Origin: an uncultured Acidobacteriota bacterium
Lineage (GTDB): Bacteria > Acidobacteriota > UBA4820 > DSQY01
Direction: 5' to 3'
NCBI GenBank assembly: GCA_963772255.1
Contig: CAVYWK010000022.1
Span: 65,388 to 129,387 of the forward strand
Length of the DNA: 64,000 bases
Under the pieces are notes generated by a model. The model was not told the DNA's origin. It saw only the letters and a list, made by a program, of their open reading frames with translations, and made no database searches. Position numbers and translations under genes: made by a program. Shown here piece after piece: positions 3,577 to 56,312 of this stretch (positions are counted from its first letter, which is position 1; every line of letters starts with the position of its first letter).

Positions 3577-4482
3577 CTAGTACAGGCTTCCGGTGTTCAC
3601 CACGGGATGGGGGTCCCGGTTCCCGCAGAGCACCACGAGGAGGTTGCTGATCATGGCGGCCTTGCGCTCCTCGTCCAGCTCCACCACGTGCTCCTCGCTC
3701 AGTTTGGCCAGGGCCATCTGGACCATGCTCACGGCGCCCTCCACGATCTTCCGGCGCGCTGCGATGATGGCTGAAGCTTGCTGGCGCTGGAGCATGGCGC
3801 CGGCGATCTCCGCGGCATAGGCAAGATGGCTCAGCCGGGCCTCCTCGACCTTGACGCCCGCCTTGGTGAGGCGCTCGTGCAGCTCCTTTTCCAGCGCCAC
3901 GGACACCTCGTCGATGTTGGCGCGAAGGGAGATGGCCCGATCGTCCCCCTCCTCCCACGAATCGTAGGGGTAGGTGCTGGCCAGGTGCCGCAGGGCCGAC
4001 TCGCTTTGGACCTTGACGAAATCCGCGTAGTTCACCACATCGAAGCACGCGGCGAAAGTATCCTGGACTTTCCACACCACCACCGCGGCGATCTCGATGG
4101 GATTGCCGGCCTTGTCGTTGACCTTCAGCTTGTCTCCGTTGAGGTTGTAGGAGCGCAGGGAGATTTTGCGCTTCACCGAGAAGGGGTTCACCCACCAGAA
4201 TCCGTAGGCCTTCACCGTGCCCGTGTAGCGGCCGAAGAGCGTCAGGACTCCCGCCTCGTTGGGGAGGAGGATGAAGAACCCCTTGGTGGTGATGGCCCCC
4301 GCGGCCACCAGCAGGCCACCGCAGACCATGAGCGCGATCCCCAACACGGGGACTCTGCCGGCGCTCTTTTCCAAATGGGTGGCGCCGTTGATGAGCAAGA
4401 CGGGCGCCGCCAAGAATAGAAGGACATTGACGAACACCATGGGCCAGCCGTTGATTGCGGAAGTGATCTTTTCCTGGTACAT
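3577..4482 (-). CDS. SPFH/band-7 (stomatin/prohibitin-like) membrane protein
   Basis: 301 aa. It has an N-terminal TM region followed by a band-7-like core ([24 protein letters not shown]..) and an Ala/Gln-rich coiled C-terminal part ([21 protein letters not shown]). Confidence 0.85.
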
Positions 4483-4517
4483 GAGAACCCTCCAATTGAT
4501 ACCTATATGATATCACT

Positions 4518-5612
4518 ATGATTTCACTTTGTCAAGGGGGGGTGGCCACCGCCCAACCGCGGGGTGACTTGCGCGTCACCGCAAGAATGGCTAATCTTCC
4601 AAAGGGCGATGGCGACCCGCCCCGCCCGGAGGCGTGCTCGGTGCGTAAACGGACTCGGCTGGCTTTGTTTCTGATCTTGAACGCCCTCCTCGTCTCGGGA
4701 GGGTTGGCCTGGCATATCGTCCCACCGCGTCGTTCGCTCTCGCCATCGTTGCCTTCGCCTCCTCCTCACGATGAGCATGGAAGGGCACCGCGCCGTGAGT
4801 GGGCGGGGCTGGACCGGACCCGCCTGGCCCTCCGGTCGAGCGCCGCTCTGGTGGCCGACCAGGGCACGGGTGAACTGCTCTACGAGAAGGATGCGGAACG
4901 CGTGACCTCCATCGCCTCCATCACCAAACTCATGACGGCCATGGTGATTCTCGACGCGCGGTTGCCCATGGGCGAGCCGGTGACGGTGACCCAGGACGAT
5001 GTGGACACTCTTCGCAACTCCCTCTCTCGCCTTCCCGTGGGCTGGACGCTGACCCGCGAGGAGATGCTTCGCCTAGCCCTCATGGCCTCGGAAAACCGTG
5101 CCGCATCGGCCCTGGCCCGAACCTTCCCGGGCGGGACCGAAGCCTTCGTCGCCGCCATGAATGCCAAGGCCCTGGCCCTGGGAATGGGGCATACCCGCTT
5201 CGTGGATCCGCACGGACTCCACGCCGACAACGCCTCCACGGCGAGGGATCTCCTCCTCATGGCCAACGCCGCCTACGGTTACCCGACGATCCGGCGGATG
5301 ACCACGACGCCAAGCTATACCGTCGTCTCTCTGGGCTCGGGCCGAAGCCGTACCTTCGGCAACTCGGACTACCTCGTGGCGAGCGACCGCTGGGTGGTGG
5401 GATTGAGCAAGACCGGGTTCATCAACGAGTCGGGCTACTGCCTCGTCCTCCAGGCCACCATCAAGGAGCGGCCCGTGGTCATGGTCTTTCTGGACAGTGT
5501 CGGCAAGCACTCCCGTCAGGGAGATGCGGCGCGCGTCCGGGCCTGGCTGGAGACGGGTTCCGGAGACATGGCACTGGGCAGGAGAAGCCTCGACAGACAG
5601 CCTGCGGGGTAG
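4518..5612 (+). CDS. D-alanyl-D-alanine endopeptidase/carboxypeptidase (peptidase S11, PBP7/PbpG-like)
   Basis: Motifs SxxK (SITK), SxN (SEN) and KTG (SKTG) occur in the right order. The start is uncertain (4518, or ATG 4587). Confidence 0.8.
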   Translation: MISLCQGGVATAQPRGDLRVTARMANLPKGDGDPPRPEACSVRKRTRLALFLILNALLVSGGLAWHIVPPRRSLSPSLPSPPPHDEHGRAPRREWAGLDRTRLALRSSAALVADQGTGELLYEKDAERVTSIASITKLMTAMVILDARLPMGEPVTVTQDDVDTLRNSLSRLPVGWTLTREEMLRLALMASENRAASALARTFPGGTEAFVAAMNAKALALGMGHTRFVDPHGLHADNASTARDLLLMANAAYGYPTIRRMTTTPSYTVVSLGSGRSRTFGNSDYLVASDRWVVGLSKTGFINESGYCLVLQATIKERPVVMVFLDSVGKHSRQGDAARVRAWLETGSGDMALGRRSLDRQPAG

Positions 5613-11363: not shown

Positions 11364-12206
11364 ACCGCACCTCCCAGGCCGCAGAGGATCTGGTCGAGCT
11401 CCGCGAGTCCCACCCGGAGTTCCTCGTCGTTGGGGGCGCTTGCCGTGGAAGTTCACGTTGTTCTCCATGTAGGACACGTCCTTGCCCTTGACCGTTTCGG
11501 CCACGATGACCGTGGGGGCGCCCTTGGTCTCGCGGGCTTCCTCCAGCGCGCCGAGGATGGCGTCGTAGTCGTGCCCGTCGATGTGGTGAGCGGCCCAGCC
11601 GAAGGCGGCAAACTTTTCGGGGACGGGCTCCTCGTTCTTGATCTCCTCCACCACGCCGTCGATCTGGAGGTGGTTGTGATCCAGGAGGACGCAGAGGTTG
11701 TCGGTCTTCCGGTGGCCAGCGGCCATGATGGCCTCCCAGGTCTGGCCCTCCTGGAGTTCGCCGTCCCCCACCACGCAGTAGACCCGCTGGCTCCCGCCCC
11801 GAAGCTTCAATCCCAGGGCCATGCCGTGGGCCACGCTCAGGCCCTGCCCCAGGCTGCCCGTGGAGATCTCCACGCCGGGCAGGTACTTGCACTCGGGGTG
11901 GCCCTGCAACCTGGACTTGAACTTGCGGAAGGTCAGGAGCTCCTCGTGGGGGAAGTACCCGACTTGGGCGAGGACCCCGTATAGCGCGGGGCTGGCGTGG
12001 CCCTTGGACAGGACGAAGCGGTCCCGCCCCTCCCACTCGGGATCCTTGGGATCCAGGTTCATGTCGTGAAAGTAGAGGCAGGTCATGAGGTCGATGGCGG
12101 AGAGGGACCCGCCGGGATGACCCGATTGGGCCGCGTGGGTCATGACCAAGATGTCCTTCCGGATCGAGGTCGCGATCTGCTTGAGGCGTCTGATTTCGGG
12201 GTCCAT
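11360..12206 (-). CDS. transketolase, N-terminal (TPP-binding) subunit; its 3' end is frameshifted into the downstream subunit
   Basis: Starts MDPEIRRLKQIA (GGAGGG upstream of ATG 12206) and contains GHPGGSLS and GDGELQEG. After FHGK the frame changes at the G5/C5 run 11432-11436. Without the extra base it reads ..PNDEELRVGLAELDQILCGLGGAV, with a stop at 11360 overlapping ATG 11363. Confidence 0.8.
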
Positions 12207-23295: not shown

Positions 23296-23712
23296 ATGTC
23301 GTTCAAGAAGCTCGCCGTCATCGCCCTCGCCTCGCTCGTCCTCGCCGCCCTTCCCCTCTTGGCCGGGGACGCCGTTCCCGCCGGAAACGCAACGACGAAG
23401 GTCGAAGCAGCCAAGGGCCCAGAAACGGCCGTCTTCGCCATCCCCGGCCTGAAAGATGAAGCCCTCGTCAAGAACCTCAACTCGGCCCTCGCCAAGGAGG
23501 TCGGCATCATGGCGGCCAAGGCCGACGCCGAGAATGGCAAGTTCATGGTCACCTTCGAGCCGGGCAAGACCAATCCCGAAACCCTCGGCAAGGCCCTCGC
23601 CAAGGTCTCCCCCGAAGCCAAGTTCGAGAAGGTCCAGGCCGCTGACCCGGCGGCCGCCAAGCACGACTGCTCCAAGTGCCCGAGCAAGTCCACCTGCGGC
23701 AAGCACAAGTAG
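23296..23712 (+). CDS. secreted HMA-like domain protein with Cys-rich C-terminal tail (CSKCPSKSTCGKHK)
   Basis: This is the inner start of ORF 23143..23712, with AGGAGGA upstream of ATG 23296. It has a signal peptide, and AVFAIPGLKDEALVKNLNSALAKEVGIMAAKADAENGKFMVTF is HMA-like. Confidence 0.45.
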   Translation: MSFKKLAVIALASLVLAALPLLAGDAVPAGNATTKVEAAKGPETAVFAIPGLKDEALVKNLNSALAKEVGIMAAKADAENGKFMVTFEPGKTNPETLGKALAKVSPEAKFEKVQAADPAAAKHDCSKCPSKSTCGKHK

Positions 23713-43441: not shown

Positions 43442-43837
43442 CTATCTCTCCGGTACCGCCTTATACCCGTACGCAATAACTCCCGACTCCCCGGCCTCCT
43501 GGATCTTGCGGAACTCCAGGGAGACCTTGAGGCCGATGGCCAGGCGCTCGGGCTCGCAGTCGGCGATCTGGCACAGGAGGCGCGTGCCGTCGCTCAGCTC
43601 CACGACGCCCATGCAGTAGGGGGCCTCATCCGAGAAACCCCTGGGGGGCGTTCTGATAACGGTATGTGAGATGACCTGACCCTCTTCGGGCAGAGTGTAG
43701 GCCTTGAACTTGCGGCTTTGGCAATCATCGCAGATCAGGCGCGGGGGGAAGAAGACCTTGCCGCACTTGGCGCACTTGGCCGCTTCCATGCGGTAGCGCT
43801 GGGGGGTGTTCCTGCGGACGATGGCTGGCGTGAGCAT
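43442..43837 (-). CDS. DUF35 OB-fold/zinc-ribbon protein (scaffold of the archaeal-type thiolase/HMG-CoA synthase complex)
   Basis: 131 aa. It has the zinc ribbon CAKCGKVFFPPRLICDDC followed by an OB-fold part. Its ATG overlaps the thiolase stop. Confidence 0.85.
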   Translation of the reverse strand: MLTPAIVRRNTPQRYRMEAAKCAKCGKVFFPPRLICDDCQSRKFKAYTLPEEGQVISHTVIRTPPRGFSDEAPYCMGVVELSDGTRLLCQIADCEPERLAIGLKVSLEFRKIQEAGESGVIAYGYKAVPER

Positions 43838-44994
43838 CACAGCACCTCCAGGATGTGGACGACGGCGCTGCCGCCGGAACCGCCCATGTTCTGGGCGAGG
43901 CCGCGGCGCACGTTCTTGAGCTGGCGCTTGCCGGCCTCGCCGCGGAGCTGGGTGACGATCTCGTGGATCTGGGCGATGCCCGTGGCGCCCACGGGGTGCC
44001 CCTTGGACTTGAGGCCGCCGGAGGGGTTCACGGGGTACTTGCCGTCGCGCGCCGTGAAGCCTTCGCGCGTGGCCTTGCCGCCCTGGCCCTTCTTCACGAC
44101 GCCCAGGGCTTCGAGCACGCAGATCTCGGCGATGGTGAAGCAGTCGTGGACCTCGGCGAAGTCGATGTCCAGGGGTTTCACGCCGGCCATCTTGTAGGCG
44201 CGGGCGGCGGCGTCGGCGGTGGACCTGAGCCAGGTCATGTCGGCGCGCTGGTGGAGGGCGATGGTGTCCGTGGCGTGGGCCGATGCGGCGATCTTGACGA
44301 GGGGTTTCTTCTTGAGCTTTTTGGCCATCTCCAGGGGGCAGATGATGACCGCCGCCGCGCCGTCCGTAATAGGCGAGCAGTCCAGGATGTTGAGGGGATC
44401 GGCCACCTTCACGCTGTTGATGACCTGGTCCACCGTGATCTTCATGCGGTACTGGGCGTGGGGGTTGAGCAGGCCGTTGTCGTGATTCTTCACGGCCACC
44501 TGGGCCAGGTCTTCCCGCTTGGTGCCGTACTTGTGCATGTGGGCGGTGGCCATGAGGGCGTAGAGCCCCGGGAAGGTGGCGCCGTGGAAGGCCTCGTAGT
44601 CCTGGTCCGCGGCCGTGGCCAGGGCGTAGGTGGCCTGGGCGCCGCTCACGTCGGTCATCTTCTCCACGCCGCCGCACAGGACGATGTCATGCATTCCCGA
44701 GGCGACGTAGGCGATGCCCGTCCTCAAGGCCATGCCGCCGGAGGCGCAGGCCGATTCCACGCGCACGCCGGGGATGGGCGCCTGGCCGAGGTAGTCCGCG
44801 AGCAGGGAGCCGATGTGCTCCTGGCCGGCGAAGAGCCCCGGGCTCATGCAGCCCGCCACGAGGCCGTCGATGTGGTCCACGCCGGCGTCGTCCATGGCCT
44901 CCAGGGCCGCCTTCACGAATAGGTCCCTCAGGGAGTCGTTCCAGAGCTCCCCGAAGTCCGTCATGCCGATGCCGATGATGGCGATGTCGCGCAT
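43837..44994 (-). CDS. archaeal-type acetyl-CoA C-acetyltransferase (thiolase)
   Basis: 385 aa: [16 protein letters not shown].., the active-site Cys context VESACASGG, and C-terminal [15 protein letters not shown]. Confidence 0.9.
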
Positions 44995-44998
44995 GGCC

Positions 44999-46051
44999 TC
45001 AGTCCTCCACGTTCTTCCGGATCTTGCGGCGGAATTTCACGTACGTGCCGTAGTCCAGATAGAAGGGGTTGTTGTCGAGATAGTCCCGGGTCTTTTTCGC
45101 CTTGCCCTGGACCTTGGGAAGGGCCTTGGTGGCGGTGAAGATGAAGCCGTCCGAACCCGCGCCCGAGCCGAAGGAGCACATGAGGATGGCGTCGCCCGGC
45201 TTGGCCTCGTCCAGGATGGCCGAGAGGCCCAGGGGCGAGGCGCCCGAGTAGGTGTTGCCCAGCGTCGGCACGAGCAGGCCCGTCTTCACCTGGTCCTCGG
45301 TGAAGCCCAGGTCCTTGGCCATGCGCACGGGGAACTTGCCGTTGGGCTGGTGGAAGACGATGTACTTGAAGTCCTTGGGCTTGGCGCCCGCCTTCTTGAG
45401 GAGGCCCTCCACGCCGCCGCGCACGTGTTTGAAGTAGGCCATGTCGCCCGTGAAGCGGCCCGCGTGGCGCGGGTAGTGCATGTACTCCCGGCGCCAGAAA
45501 TCGGGGGTGTCGCTCATGTAGGAGAACTGGCAGTCCAGGCTGGCCACCACGTTCGTCTTGCCCATGATGAAGGCCGCGCCGCCCGCCGCCGCCGAGTACT
45601 CCAGCGCGTCTCCGGGCGCTCCCTGGGAGGTGTCCGAGCCGATGCCGAGGGCGTACTCCACCTCGCCCGACTTGACCAGGCCGAAGGCCAGGAACATGCC
45701 CTCCGAACCGGCCTTGCACGCGAAGGAGAGATCCGCGCAGTGGCAGTCGTTCACGGCCCCGAGGACCTCCGCCACGGCCGTGCCCGAAGGCTTCACGGCG
45801 TAGGGGTGCGACTCGGAACCCACGTAGATCGCCCCGATCTTGGCGGCGTCGATGCCCGCCCGGCGGAGGGCGTTCTTGGCCGCCTCCACCGAGATGGTGA
45901 TGGTGTCCTGGTCCGGACCGGGGACCGATTTTTCTCTCAGCATCAGACCCTTTTTGTAGCTGGGCGCATCCGCTCCCCAGACCTTGGCGATCTCCTCCAC
46001 CTTGATCCGGTAGCGGGGAATGTACGCCCCGTATCCCACGATTCCTACCAT
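44999..46051 (-). CDS. hydroxymethylglutaryl-CoA synthase, archaeal type
   Basis: Starts [22 protein letters not shown] (GAGGAGG upstream). It also has [22 protein letters not shown] and HQPNGKFP. Confidence 0.9.
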
Positions 46052-46292
46052 GAAGACCTCCTCAGTCGAGCGCTTGGCATGGCGAAACGAGAAAGAGGGT
46101 AATGTACTGGTTTTCTCGTGTGGAGGCAAGGCCGGAGGGTGGAGCAAACGGTCCTAAGCCGAGTCCCGTCCCCATTCTTGAAGGGAGGAATCGGGAGGGT
46201 GCGCCGTGTCCTGTCTTTGTTGCCTATGGACTCTGAGCGGGTCGCTCGAAGCCTCAATCTTCAGGGTGTTCGCGGTTCAGGGTGCCTTCCCC

Positions 46293-54142: not shown

Positions 54143-54502
54143 ATGCCAGCCATTGAACCCGTCGTCCTGGTGCTCACGACCACAGGCTCGGAGGAGCAGG
54201 GCATCAACATCGCGGAGGCGCTTGTAGAGCGCGGCCAATCCGCATGCGTGAACATCGTCAAGAAGATCCGCTCCATCTACCGCTGGAAGGGCGAGATCTG
54301 GGACGATGAGGAATACCTTCTCGTCATCAAGACCCGGGAGAGCTGTTTCGCGCAGGTGCGGGAAACGATCCGCGAACTACACAGCTACGAACTTCCCGAA
54401 GTGCTGTGCGTCCCCGTGACGCTGGCCGATGAGAAGGTCCAGGCCTGGATCGTCGGTGCCACCGGCGGCCATCCCGCCCGCACCGAAAAAGCCGCCGAGT
54501 AA
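54143..54502 (+). CDS. cutA: divalent-cation tolerance protein CutA
   Basis: The pattern VVLVLTTTGSEEQGINIAEALVERGQSACVNIV..IRSIYRWKGEI..EEYLLVIKT..HSYELPEV is present. GGGGAGGAGAGG lies upstream of ATG 54143. Confidence 0.85.
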   Translation: MPAIEPVVLVLTTTGSEEQGINIAEALVERGQSACVNIVKKIRSIYRWKGEIWDDEEYLLVIKTRESCFAQVRETIRELHSYELPEVLCVPVTLADEKVQAWIVGATGGHPARTEKAAE

Positions 54503-54529
54503 TTTACGCGGATTCTTTAGAATGGACAG

Positions 54530-54563
54530 CGGGCCGGGAGAAAACTCCCGGCCCGTTTAGTCT
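54530..54563 (+). terminator. rho-independent terminator of cutA
   Basis: CGGGCCGGGAG aaaa CTCCCGGCCCG followed by TTTAGTCTT. Confidence 0.65.
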
Positions 54564-54612
54564 TCACCGTTCCTTATTCCCACCTACGTACCTACTCACC
54601 TACTCACGCCCT

Positions 54613-54654
54613 TCACACCGCTTCTACCGCCATGGCGACCCCATTTCCTCCCCC
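54613..54654 (-). pseudogene. displaced, diverged copy of the thiolase 3' end ([13 protein letters not shown]-stop)
   Basis: It differs from the in-gene copy (55051-55092, [13 protein letters not shown]-stop) at 12/42 nt. Six of the differences are silent third-position changes. It is followed by a period-8 array (CCTACTCA type, 54581-54610). Confidence 0.8.
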
Positions 54655-54829
54655 CAGGTCGCGCCTCACGCGCTCCCCCAGGGGGCCTCAGCCGGCCCCC
54701 TAGGGCGGGCCCTTCGTGCCCTGTGACCCCCTGCCCTCATGCGGGAAGCCCTTCGCTCGGGGGAACCTCCTCGTTCCCCCGCACCCCCTCGCCGCCTCGG
54801 CGGCAAATCGCCAAGGTCCGCCCGCTGAA
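54655..54829 (-). mobile_element. ~175-bp GC-rich structured element E' (distal copy)
   Basis: It is homologous to 54872-55050. The ~75 nt next to the gene-end copy are near-identical. The remaining ~100 nt are diverged but keep an 8-bp hairpin through a compensatory change. Confidence 0.7.
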
Positions 54830-55050
54830 CTACATCGATTCGATGGCCATGGCGACGCCGTTCCCGCCGCCCAGGCGTCGCGCGCAAGCACGCTCCCCCC
54901 AGGGGGGCTCTGCCGCCCCCCTAGGGCGGATGCTTCGCATCCTGTGACCCCGGGCCCTCCCGTCAGGAGACCTCTGCTCGGGGGAACCTCCTCGTTCCCC
55001 CGCACCCCCTCGCCGCCTCGGCGGCAAATCGCCAAGGTCTGCCCGCTGAA
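54830..55050 (-). mobile_element. second exact copy of the thiolase 3' end (54830-54871) plus ~179-bp structured element E (54872-55050)
   Basis: 54830-54871 is identical (42/42) to 55051-55092. E contains perfect hairpins GGGGGAAC-ctcctc-GTTCCCCC (54980-55001), AGGGGGGC-tctgcc-GCCCCCCT (54901-54922) and GGATGC-ttc-GCATCC (54928-54942). Confidence 0.75.
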
Positions 55051-56234
55051 CTACATCGATTCGATGGCCATGGCGACGCCGTTCCCGCCGCCGAGGCACA
55101 GGCTCACAATCCCCCTCCGGGCGCCCCGGTCCTTCATGGCGTAGAGGAGGGTGAGCAGGCAACGGGTGCCCGATGCGCCGATGGGGTGCCCCAGGGCCAC
55201 GGCACCGCCGTTCACGTTCACCTTTTCGGCGGGAGGCCCAGGACCTTGAGGAGGGCGCAGGACTGGGCTGCGAAGGCCTCGTTGAGCTCGAAGAGGTCCA
55301 CGCTTTTCAGGTCCCAGCCCGCCTTGGTTGCCGCGGCCCGCACGGCGGGTTCAGGGGTCATCATGACCCACCGGGGTTCGAGCCCAGAAGTGGCGTAGGC
55401 CACGATGCGCCCCAGCGGAGCCACGCCCTTCTTCTCCGCCACAGACGCCGTGGTCACCACCACCGCCGCCCCGCCGTCGTTGATTTGGCTCGCGTTCCCC
55501 GCGGTCACTACGCCGTCCTTCTTGAAGGCCGGGCGGAGCTTGGCCAGGCCCTCGAGGGAGACATCGGCGCGGATACCCTCGTCCGCGCGGAACTGGACGG
55601 GGTCCCCCTTCTTCTGCGGGATGGGCACGGCGAAGGTCTCCCCGTCGAACCTGCCCGCAGCCCACGCGGCGGCGGCCCGGCGGTGGCTCTCCACGGAATA
55701 GGCGTCCATCTCCTGGCGGGAGATCTGATGCTCGCCGGCCACGAGCTCGGCGGTGAGTCCCATGTGCTGGCCATCGTATGCGTCGGTGAGGCCGTCGGCC
55801 ACCAGGGAGTCGGTCACCTCCCCGTGTCCCAAGCGGAAGCCCGTGCGCCCCTGCCTCAGCAGGTAGGGCGCGTTGGACATGGACTCCATGCCGCCCGCCA
55901 GGATCAACGCCGCGTCTCCCGCCCTGATGGCCTGGGCCGCCAGCATGACCGCCTTGAGCCCCGAACCGCAGACCTTGTTCACGGTGAAGGCGGCCACCGA
56001 GACGGGCAAGCCGGCCTTGAGGGCCGCCTGCCGCGCCGGGTTCTGTCCCACTCCCGCCTGGAGGACGTTGCCCAGGATGACCTCTTCTACCTCTGCGGGA
56101 TCCACCTTGCCGCGCGAGAGGGCCTCCCGGACGGCCACCGAACCGATTTCAGGTGCGGTCATGGCCGCCAGCGGGCCCTGGAATTTGGCGATGCCCGTTC
56201 GGGCTCCTGCGAGAATGACGATGGGATCCGACAT
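55051..56234 (-). pseudogene. bacterial-type acetyl-CoA C-acetyltransferase (thiolase II), one frameshift near the 3' end
   Basis: Starts [20 protein letters not shown] (GGAGGA upstream) and has [14 protein letters not shown] 55218..56279 stops after ..GLPPKR. Adding one base at ~55227 restores ..[60 protein letters not shown]-stop (55051). Confidence 0.85.
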
Positions 56235-56312
56235 GGTGTCCTCCTGGGGTGATGGGTGGGGGTTAGAAGCCTTCCTCATGCCACGGTGCGACCATGTCCC
56301 GTGAGCGGAACG

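Follow-up and report, generated by a model that had tools for sequence, protein, structure and literature searches.

Two tandem, probably integrative, non-coding cassettes with surrogate gene ends at the 3' end of an acidobacterial thiolase gene

Integrase-mediated insertion into gene ends, with the interrupted end replaced by a surrogate end, is known from phage 21 and e14 in icd and from tRNA-targeting islands. Other mobile elements are guided by nucleic acids, such as group II introns through pairing of exon- and intron-binding sites (EBS/IBS), IS110 through its bridge RNA and IscB/TnpB through guide RNAs. In cis-mobilizable elements (CIMEs), attL and attR are retained while the integration and transfer genes have been lost as integrative and conjugative elements (ICEs) or integrative and mobilizable elements (IMEs) decayed, and accretion has been described for them (PMC5704250). 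Single-strand/duplex recombination with replicative resolution is used by CTX-phi and other integrative mobile elements exploiting Xer (IMEX), which depend on XerCD (PMC3442271), and by integron cassettes with attC sites (PMC4792948). Here we describe two small tandem inserts at the 3' end of a thiolase gene in a 64,000-nt stretch of contig CAVYWK010000022.1 from an uncultured Acidobacteriota bacterium; this whole stretch is referred to as the window. On balance we favour the reading that they are two tandem small non-coding integrative cassettes, mobilised in trans. The integrative element with a surrogate end that is mobilised in trans is known as such; new are the size of ~220 nt, a covarying core that is shared across targets and a closing stem that matches the target.

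In the window, the thiolase 3' end is present three times on the minus strand (55092-55051, 54871-54830 and 54654-54613), with two related inserts in between. Coordinates and sequences of this arrangement, first seen in an initial annotation made from the sequence alone, were rechecked and hold: copy 2 is an exact 42/42 repeat of copy 1 (GGCGGCGGGAACGGCGTCGCCATGGCCATCGAATCGATGTAG), and copy 3 (GGGGGAGGAAATGGGGTCGCCATGGCGGTAGAAGCGGTGTGA) differs from them at 12 nt. The inserts are indeed tiny and non-coding, E (55050-54872) comprising 179 nt and E' (54829-54655) 175 nt. The 42-mer match stands, but the real repeated block is 47 nt long and starts with GCCT, five bases earlier. Likewise, E alone, as initially delimited, is not the mobile unit; the unit consists of the 47-nt gene end, a 36-nt spacer and a 138-nt core (136 nt in the second unit), is closed by a stem and amounts to 221 and 219 nt, respectively. 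A repeat search in the window returned a direct repeat of 202 nt at 89% identity plus a three-member 44-nt family, and Tandem Repeats Finder described the array with a period of 221, 2.1 copies and a score of 694. According to the alignment of the two units, the repeat and the first ~75 nt past the stop are nearly identical, whereas the distal halves of E and E' share only ~78% identity, with compensatory changes in the hairpin stems.

The locus was retrieved from other metagenomes by means of the exact 119-amino-acid CutA product, which is encoded on 19 contigs (L-numbers denote loci or contigs from metagenomes or genomes that were compared with the window). The empty and single-insert contigs described below are 85-92% identical to the window and hence represent different species-level lineages. 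Empty sites, in which a thiolase ending in AVEAV lies near cutA, had been predicted and are present in L009, L011, L002, L004, L007, L010 and L008. The thiolase of L009 and L011 has GGAGGAGGAAATGGGGTCGCCATGGCGGTAGAAGCGGTGTGA (..AVEAV, stop codon TGA) as its 3' end, equal to window copy 3 at 41/42 nt and followed, as in the window, by GTRAGTAG repeats and a hairpin and then by cutA. The distance from the thiolase end to cutA is 140 nt in these two loci and 111 nt in the window and in L002, L004, L007 and L010. The 8-nt GTRAGTAG repeat just past the native stop varies in number, with 3.4 copies in the window and 8.6 in L008 (1344-1412). Not a single nucleotide is lost at the empty sites, and the native end and the sequence downstream of it are preserved across alleles. 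Independent assemblies also contain the copy-number variants that had been envisaged: zero inserts in the empty alleles, one in L003 and two in the window. Spacer and core of L003 are 98% identical to those of the window, the flanking genes 92.5%. The third copy, suspected to have evolved separately as a coding end, turned out to be the native allele, copies 1 and 2 being foreign coding ends according to their synonymous excess (see below).

Sequence comparison identifies the insert as one member of a putatively mobile family with other members at other genes. A genome scan located the core in an Acidobacteria metagenome-assembled genome (L012) at the 5' end of an aldo/keto reductase gene, with a diverged duplicate of the first codons of this gene on the far side of the core, and a metagenome scan keyed on core hairpin H1 yielded 44 loci. 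A covariance model built from 17 cores recognised ~22 full-length cores and many fragments that keep the 5' part of the core only; within the 64-kb window it found the cores E and E' and no further copy. Beyond thiolase (window, L003, L024, L018), at least six other gene families are targeted. Pfam assigned these as FtsX/MacB permeases (L015, L022, L034, L038), radical SAM/SPASM proteins (L020, L033), CCG-domain proteins (L013, L023, L031), an aldo/keto reductase (L012) and an Lpd-like oxidoreductase (L045; in L050 recognised by the C-terminal peptide read from the DNA), and one is a gene without family assignment in L030. The element of L047 lies at an intergenic hairpin, and that of L049 probably at a tRNA-like 3' end.

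All these loci share one order: gene body, left repeat, a spacer of 0-57 nt, an extension of ~11 nt (ext), the core ending in GCGCGAC, right repeat and native downstream sequence. The left repeat consists of the last 12-25 codons up to the stop or, in L012 and L030, of the first codons including the start. The target direct repeats around the cores are 35-90 nt long and variable in length. The right repeat copy begins 0-6 nt past GCGCGAC. The element has an exact junction on its 3' side and a variable 5' side. The gene body is found without exception on the 5' side of the element, which points the same way as the upstream gene in 12 of 14 loci; L012 and L030 are antisense to their target gene. 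Double arrays occur in L050 and L031 as well, and the linkage of thiolase, spacer and core recurs in L018 and L019, with a spacer homologue downstream of the thiolase in L018. Grouping of the cores does not follow the target: L031 (CCG domain) is nearest to L033 (radical SAM) and L024 (thiolase) nearest to L012 (aldo/keto reductase), and E' has its nearest neighbour in L012 (0.82) but reaches at most 0.78 with E. Core relatedness thus cuts across target genes, which argues that cores moved between targets.

Parts of the element were also seen in other contexts. The 5' module GTCGAGGGGG with hairpin GGGGGAACGGGGAGGTTCCCCC is likewise found at the head of a shorter type of repeat, with hairpin GTCCGCGAAGCGGAC in front (L021, L026, L028, L029, L035, L040, L041, L044, L051 and L053; in L044 in tandem with a 71-nt period). 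A further repeat type has a second hairpin, GTGGGGGAAACATGGTTTCCCCCAC (L017, L032, L042, L052), and the 5' module seems to be common to several element families. A different structured repeat (..GCGCTGCGGCCGAAGTGAATTCGGCCTCGCGC..) is found inside or in front of E cores in L018 (~4500-4700), L019 (~4020-4170) and L043 (~11700-11830); in L018 it lies within hairpin H5, and the 29 nt CCGCCGAGGCAGGGCGAGGGGGTGCGGGG come after it as a second copy. A miniature form in L046 (~4114-4182, minus strand) passes from the 5' motif and H1 directly to GCGCGAC within ~42 nt and carries the 9-nt direct repeat GCCGCGGCG at its flanks. Core fragments restricted to the 5' part lie ~75-80 nt downstream of tRNA-Gly and tRNA-Asn genes, co-oriented and free of a gene-end repeat (L056, 1650-1900; L037, 6740-6811); in L056 the H2 region is present three times.

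The core comprises 138 nt, starts with GKCGARGGGG, ends with GCGCGAC and forms five hairpins (H1-H5), the subterminal H5 lying 3 nt from its 3' end. In the core alignment 95.4% of the cells are paired, and 13 of the 36 pairs have changed on both sides in a compensatory manner. The covariation score of 0.26 compares with 0.10 in shuffles and 0.03-0.07 with slid partners, and the covariation of the core is real. H1, the key of the search, is invariant among the cores and contains the only AAC/GTT of the core, as GGGGGAAC/GTTCCCCC. The excess of G-U cells (~20) over A-C cells (~6) in the stems points to a mild preference for the strand with the sense of the upstream gene.

A second structural feature, absent from the initial annotation, adjoins the core: the ~11-nt ext directly 5' of the core is the reverse complement of the gene sequence that opens the left repeat (A-site). 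In the window, ext GCCGCCGAGGC and A-site GCCTCGGCGGC are exact reverse complements over 11 nt. The same length is reached in L045 (GGCGTGGCAGG and CCTGCCACGCC), L033 (CGCCGCCGCAG and CTGCGGCGGCG) and L034 (GGCGCGGCGGG and CCCGCCGCGCC), 10 nt in L031 and L047, and 9 nt in L015, L024 and L038. For cognate pairs the exact complementarity has a median of 9 nt, compared with 5.5 +/- 1.4 nt for non-cognate pairs from different target families (Fisher p 2e-7, Mann-Whitney p 3e-7; p 4e-5 at one value per family). Most minimum free energy folds from the start of the left repeat to the start of the core close with this stem, termed SL0, and the DNA-fold centroid of window unit 1 closes with a 12-bp SL0 stem. 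For the right, native repeat copy, complementarity to the ext does not clearly exceed that of non-cognate pairs (5.4 vs 5.1 nt). Guide pairing with the right copy was dropped, as the complementarity signal is seen only with the left, element-borne copy. The unit is thus made up of SL0, enclosing the surrogate codons, the stop and the spacer, and of the core behind it; it extends from the SL0 base at the 5' boundary to GCGCGAC at the 3' boundary. The A-sites measure 9-14 nt, are GC-rich, lie inside coding sequences and differ between targets.

The left and right repeats differ in a way that is informative about their origin. Summed over all clear coding repeats, L024 and L033 included, ~50 codons differ synonymously and 13 non-synonymously, with in-frame stops kept; against an expected 30% of synonymous changes this excess has a binomial p of 8e-16. 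In L045, 27/72 nt differ (18 synonymous and 3 non-synonymous codons), and the E'/native pair of the window has 7 and 3 in a comparison of 15 codons (the 42-mer plus the Leu codon directly 5' of it, stop in frame). The respective numbers are 6 and 0 in L020, 5 and 0 in L038, 5 and 2 in L015, and 4 and 1 in L003. Such overwhelmingly synonymous differences exclude decay of a target duplication as well as local tandem duplication. Plain local tandem duplication, against which the initial annotation had cautioned, is also excluded by the related elements at other genes, each with a gene-end duplication of its own. These sequence patterns mark the gene-proximal copy as a functional surrogate end that came from another lineage.

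Two further origins of the repeats were rejected. A simple target-site duplication does not agree with repeats that differ synonymously, a gene body that is always on the 5' side and a spacer that is not duplicated. RecA-mediated crossover in the repeats fails as the sole mechanism, the L045 repeats being 62% identical and the longest identity in the E'/native pair of the window being 11 nt.

The features of the locus are compiled in Table 1. The thiolase gene itself is split by a frameshift near 55220 (55215-55225, minus strand), where a C-run is one base short (GGCCTCCC-GCCGAAAAGG in the window vs GGTCTCCCCGCCGAGAAGG in L003) and the Pfam Thiolase_C match is divided between two frames. This may be either a sequencing error or a sign that the cassette-hosting gene has recently become a pseudogene. 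According to open reading frames (ORFs) and Pfam, the neighbourhood in the window encodes GlnE, CutA, the thiolase, a TrkA-type channel, a DHH phosphoesterase and a methylase. A second thiolase-like gene beside an HMG-CoA-synthase-like gene lies ~9 kb from the array (window 43837-46153, minus strand; also L002, 1-1942), and a 26-nt thiolase-motif match is located at window 23360-23383. Thiolase paralogues could in principle act as donors of gene ends.

Table 1. Parts of the thiolase locus in the window
Feature	Coordinates	Strand	Details
Thiolase gene, N-terminal part (target gene body)	55218..56279	-	ORF ends early at frameshift; Pfam Thiolase_N 1.6e-93, Thiolase_C profile positions 2-66
Thiolase C-terminal part, other frame	55051..55221	-	Pfam Thiolase_C profile positions 69-122, E 2.2e-20
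Direct-repeat copy 1, element-borne surrogate gene end (last 15 codons + TAG)	55051..55097	-	First 11 nt GCCTCGGCGGC, 5' strand of closing stem SL0
Spacer 1, 36 nt, stop to core	55015..55050	-	Last 11 nt GCCGCCGAGGC (55025-55015), 3' strand of SL0
Core E, 138 nt, hairpins H1-H5, end GCGCGAC	54877..55014	-	Covariance model 139.3 bits, E 2.9e-26; fold z-score -4.3
Direct-repeat copy 2, second surrogate end	54830..54876	-	As copy 1, but fifth base C -> G
Spacer 2, 36 nt	54794..54829	-	One mismatch vs spacer 1; 11-nt 3' strand of SL0 unchanged
Core E', 136 nt, separate core lineage	54658..54793	-	Covariance model 121.8 bits; nearer to L012 core than to E
Direct-repeat copy 3, displaced native thiolase end	54613..54657	-	41/42 nt match to L009/L011 gene end
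8-nt tandem repeat GTRAGTAG (minus strand), native downstream sequence, belongs to the unoccupied site and not to the insert	54581..54607	.	Tandem Repeats Finder
cutA, convergent neighbour, far side of integration site	54143..54502	+	Pfam CutA1 5.7e-31

The locus has direct repeats reaching to the gene terminus, a displaced native end and an occupied/empty polymorphism, all of which are hallmarks of integrative elements of the tyrosine/serine integrase type at gene ends. Accretion-type integration into the gene 3' end, as suggested initially, is backed by the empty sites, by the variants with zero, one and two inserts and by relatives at other genes; no recombinase-bearing element was found, and site-specific recombination at these elements is inferred. 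In the reading favoured here, each cassette comprises the surrogate last 15 codons and the stop of another lineage's thiolase, the 36-nt spacer and the 138-nt core, and its 3' end meets the native gene at the very point at which the surrogate starts. The gene stays intact but with its tail swapped (AVEAV to AIESM), and the native end persists as a fragment. The mechanism that we propose starts from a circle of the unit, most likely folded single-stranded DNA, in which SL0 would imitate the duplex target. A recombinase with its gene elsewhere would then carry out a one-strand exchange at the SL0 base, and the insertion would become fixed by replication. A single exchange at the junction of the core 3' end and A would give body-[A..core]-A''B''stop'', the order that is observed. 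In a circle or head-to-tail multimer, GCGCGAC would be joined to GCCTSGGCGGCGGGAAC, with spacer and core of the same unit upstream, and arrays could result from repeated integration or from unequal crossing-over between the long repeats. Such a single-strand SL0 model would account for a stem that matches the left copy, for the polarity of the strands, for insertions being tolerated within genes and for the arrays.

As proposed here, the cassettes resemble IMEX elements and attC cassettes in being small non-autonomous circles with the enzyme encoded elsewhere, in a folded strand whose stem mimics a duplex site, in one strand exchange followed by replicative resolution, in structure-based recognition with covarying stems and in the formation of tandem arrays. 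They differ in lacking a dif-like sequence and RYYYAAC/GTTRRRY boxes, in a stem whose sequence varies from one target gene to the next, in a loop that holds a gene end and in targets inside protein-coding genes.

Several points weigh against this proposal. Both the enzyme and the circular or single-stranded form of the unit are postulates. The elements carry no dif or attC signature, and the A-sites are short (9-14 bp), differ by target, are unlike dif or attC boxes and contain no known tyrosine-recombinase site. Moreover, identity between stem and native site amounts to only ~55-70% for L045 and for the E'/native pair of the window, which makes target recognition by simple identity doubtful. 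L012 folds into a local hairpin instead of a long-range SL0. The hairpins of the core fold on both strands, the sense-strand preference being a matter of ~20 G-U vs 6 A-C cells. The cores of L013, L018, L025, L037 and L056 have no right-hand repeat, and the family sample is biased, having been fetched via hairpin H1.

As to an enzyme in cis, the surroundings of the elements in the 44 loci, up to a distance of 5 kb, have no recurrent family of recombinases, transposases or reverse transcriptases (RTs); the initial annotation, too, had remarked that no integrase is nearby. An all-against-all comparison of the ORFs within this distance returned only target and synteny families, and a Pfam scan of 10 ORFs of the window, most of them close to the locus, brought up no recombinase, transposase or RT. 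A look-up of the window's TrkA-like protein, aimed at contigs of the same strain, returned no record. The longer elements with the same ends beside a recombinase that had been anticipated were not found. Rfam 15 gave no match at gathering score in the window and, in 54400-55300, only chance-level miRNA matches (E > 4). BLAST searches of the array or the core against plasmids and phages were negative, as were two pattern scans of viral contigs and the use of the translated core as a profile query for spurious ORFs. A metagenome pattern derived from the H3/H4 flank had zero matches although L003 has this pattern, so the collection searched lacks those samples. Integron attC R''/R' boxes (RYYYAAC...GTTRRRY) are absent from the core and no integron integrase was found around the elements; A-sites have no dif-like site (two 11-bp arms and a 6-bp spacer), and the core ends are not inverted repeats beyond the chance level given by GC composition. 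A literature search by sequence brought up nothing relevant to the core or the family, and in the resources searched we found no prior description of the family. Among other identities considered, that of a tRNA or transfer-messenger RNA (tmRNA) does not fit the core. A diversity-generating retroelement was rejected as well: the repeat differences are mostly synonymous and not adenine-specific, and no RT was found nearby.

Non-coding, hairpin-rich, non-autonomous sequences that lie at gene ends and are mobilised in trans are also represented by miniature inverted-repeat transposable elements (MITEs), repetitive extragenic palindromes (REPs) and REPINs with their REP-associated tyrosine transposases (RAYTs), and IS200/IS605 derivatives. 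Unlike MITEs, the cassettes have neither terminal inverted repeats nor a short fixed target duplication, their repeats being 35-90 nt, variable and foreign. Unlike REPs and REPINs, they have a very low copy number (two in 64 kb, usually one per contig) and five independent hairpins, and their strict polarity relative to the target gene sets them apart from the whole group. The position of H5 3 nt from the 3' end is reminiscent of palindrome-associated transposable elements (PATEs) of the IS200/IS605 type, which depend on TnpA (Y1) for excision or for insertion 3' of a fixed tetra- or pentanucleotide and produce no duplication; the cassettes, however, have long repeats.

With nucleic-acid-guided elements the cassettes share a target-matched segment of ~11 nt directly beside a conserved structured scaffold. 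One might speculate that they are protein-less cassettes whose target is set by nucleic-acid complementarity, with SL0 as a re-writable mimic or guide and a core that recruits a host enzyme or is itself catalytic; replacing the gene tail, they would form a new class of programmable gene-end-swapping elements. We regard this extension as possible rather than probable. In contrast to guided elements, there is no associated protein gene and no Rfam match, the segment pairs with the element's own surrogate end, and insertion leaves a long gene-end duplication.

Alternatively, the units could be classical double-stranded attP remnants or CIMEs, that is, leftovers of islands after internal deletion which accreted through the integrase of a related intact element. 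Gene-end integrases and CIMEs indeed generate the same order of gene, surrogate end, insert and displaced native end, an identity block from the crossover point to the gene terminus, a foreign surrogate end with synonymous differences, and tandem arrays at the att site of elements without an integrase of their own. The targets, conserved motifs and probably a tRNA-like gene (L049), would suit such integrases, ~220 bp is the size of a minimal attP, and a scheme of CIMEs and accretion has been described (PMC5704250). Flanking repeats are present as in CIMEs, but there are no gene remnants and the structured core is common to several targets. That not one of these units of ~220 bp retains a coding remnant, and that a single 138-nt core with compensatory changes serves many unrelated targets although one would expect each integrase to have arms of its own, makes this explanation rather unlikely in our view. 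Nor are there inverted core-type sites around a 6-8 bp overlap or a cis integrase in any of the 44 loci, and the target-matched closing stem SL0 is not predicted by it.

We are still more sceptical of an RNA-mediated route, in which the 3' end of the upstream gene's transcript, up to the core, would be reverse-transcribed by an RT acting in trans, with variable 5' extent, and inserted at a homologous gene, either by target-primed reverse transcription as in short interspersed elements (SINEs) or by reverse splicing with SL0 as guide. The precise 3' junction with its fuzzy 5' side and variable repeat length, the co-orientation with the upstream gene in 12/14 loci, the G-U wobble favouring the sense strand and the guide-like complementarity adjoining a structured scaffold would all be in keeping with it. 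Yet no RT is found nearby (within 5 kb of the elements or among the window ORFs scanned), surrogate ends from other lineages need DNA transfer, L012 and L030 are antisense to their target gene, and neither group I/II introns nor any ribozyme of Rfam are matched. Target-primed reverse transcription typically gives 5'-truncated copies, whereas the truncated copies here keep the 5' end, 5'-truncated ones being irretrievable by an H1-anchored search.

A comparably low probability is assigned to a non-mobile functional RNA module of the 3' untranslated region, be it a stabiliser, a terminator or a small RNA, which would have spread among related lineages by homologous recombination, with repeats arising from tandem duplication and gene conversion. 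Low copy number (two in 64 kb, one per contig), strong conservation (98% in spacer and core vs 92.5% in the flanking genes between L003 and the window) together with covariation, and the thiolase/spacer/core linkage in L018 and L019 would fit a module of this kind. It is hard to reconcile with an exact junction between core 3' end and gene at at least seven unrelated genes, with L045 repeats that are only 62% identical, with core types crossing target families, with repeat differences that are synonymous and not due to decay, and with empty sites that lose no nucleotide. An assembly artefact, be it through collapse or expansion of a repeat or through chimerism of the contig, for which the thiolase frameshift could be taken as a signal of sequence errors, is highly improbable, given that the distal halves of E and E' differ by ~20% with compensatory changes and thus do not stem from one read pile, that an independent JGI contig holds the single-insert state and other samples hold the family, and that double arrays exist in L050 and L031, too.

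If the cassettes are real integrative elements, they would be, with ~220 nt and no gene, the smallest ones known with a surrogate gene end, and one conserved structured module could be retargeted to many housekeeping genes by the change of a short stem. This raises the question which enzyme recognises the folded 138-nt core. If the choice of target were guided by base pairing, a compact programmable insertion device of interest would be at hand. The case further illustrates that gene-end arrays of the repeat/insert/repeat kind, even if they lack an integrase, can represent more than the decay of islands. For their hosts, such elements would swap the C-termini of proteins, here from AVEAV to AIESM, and move between species-level lineages.

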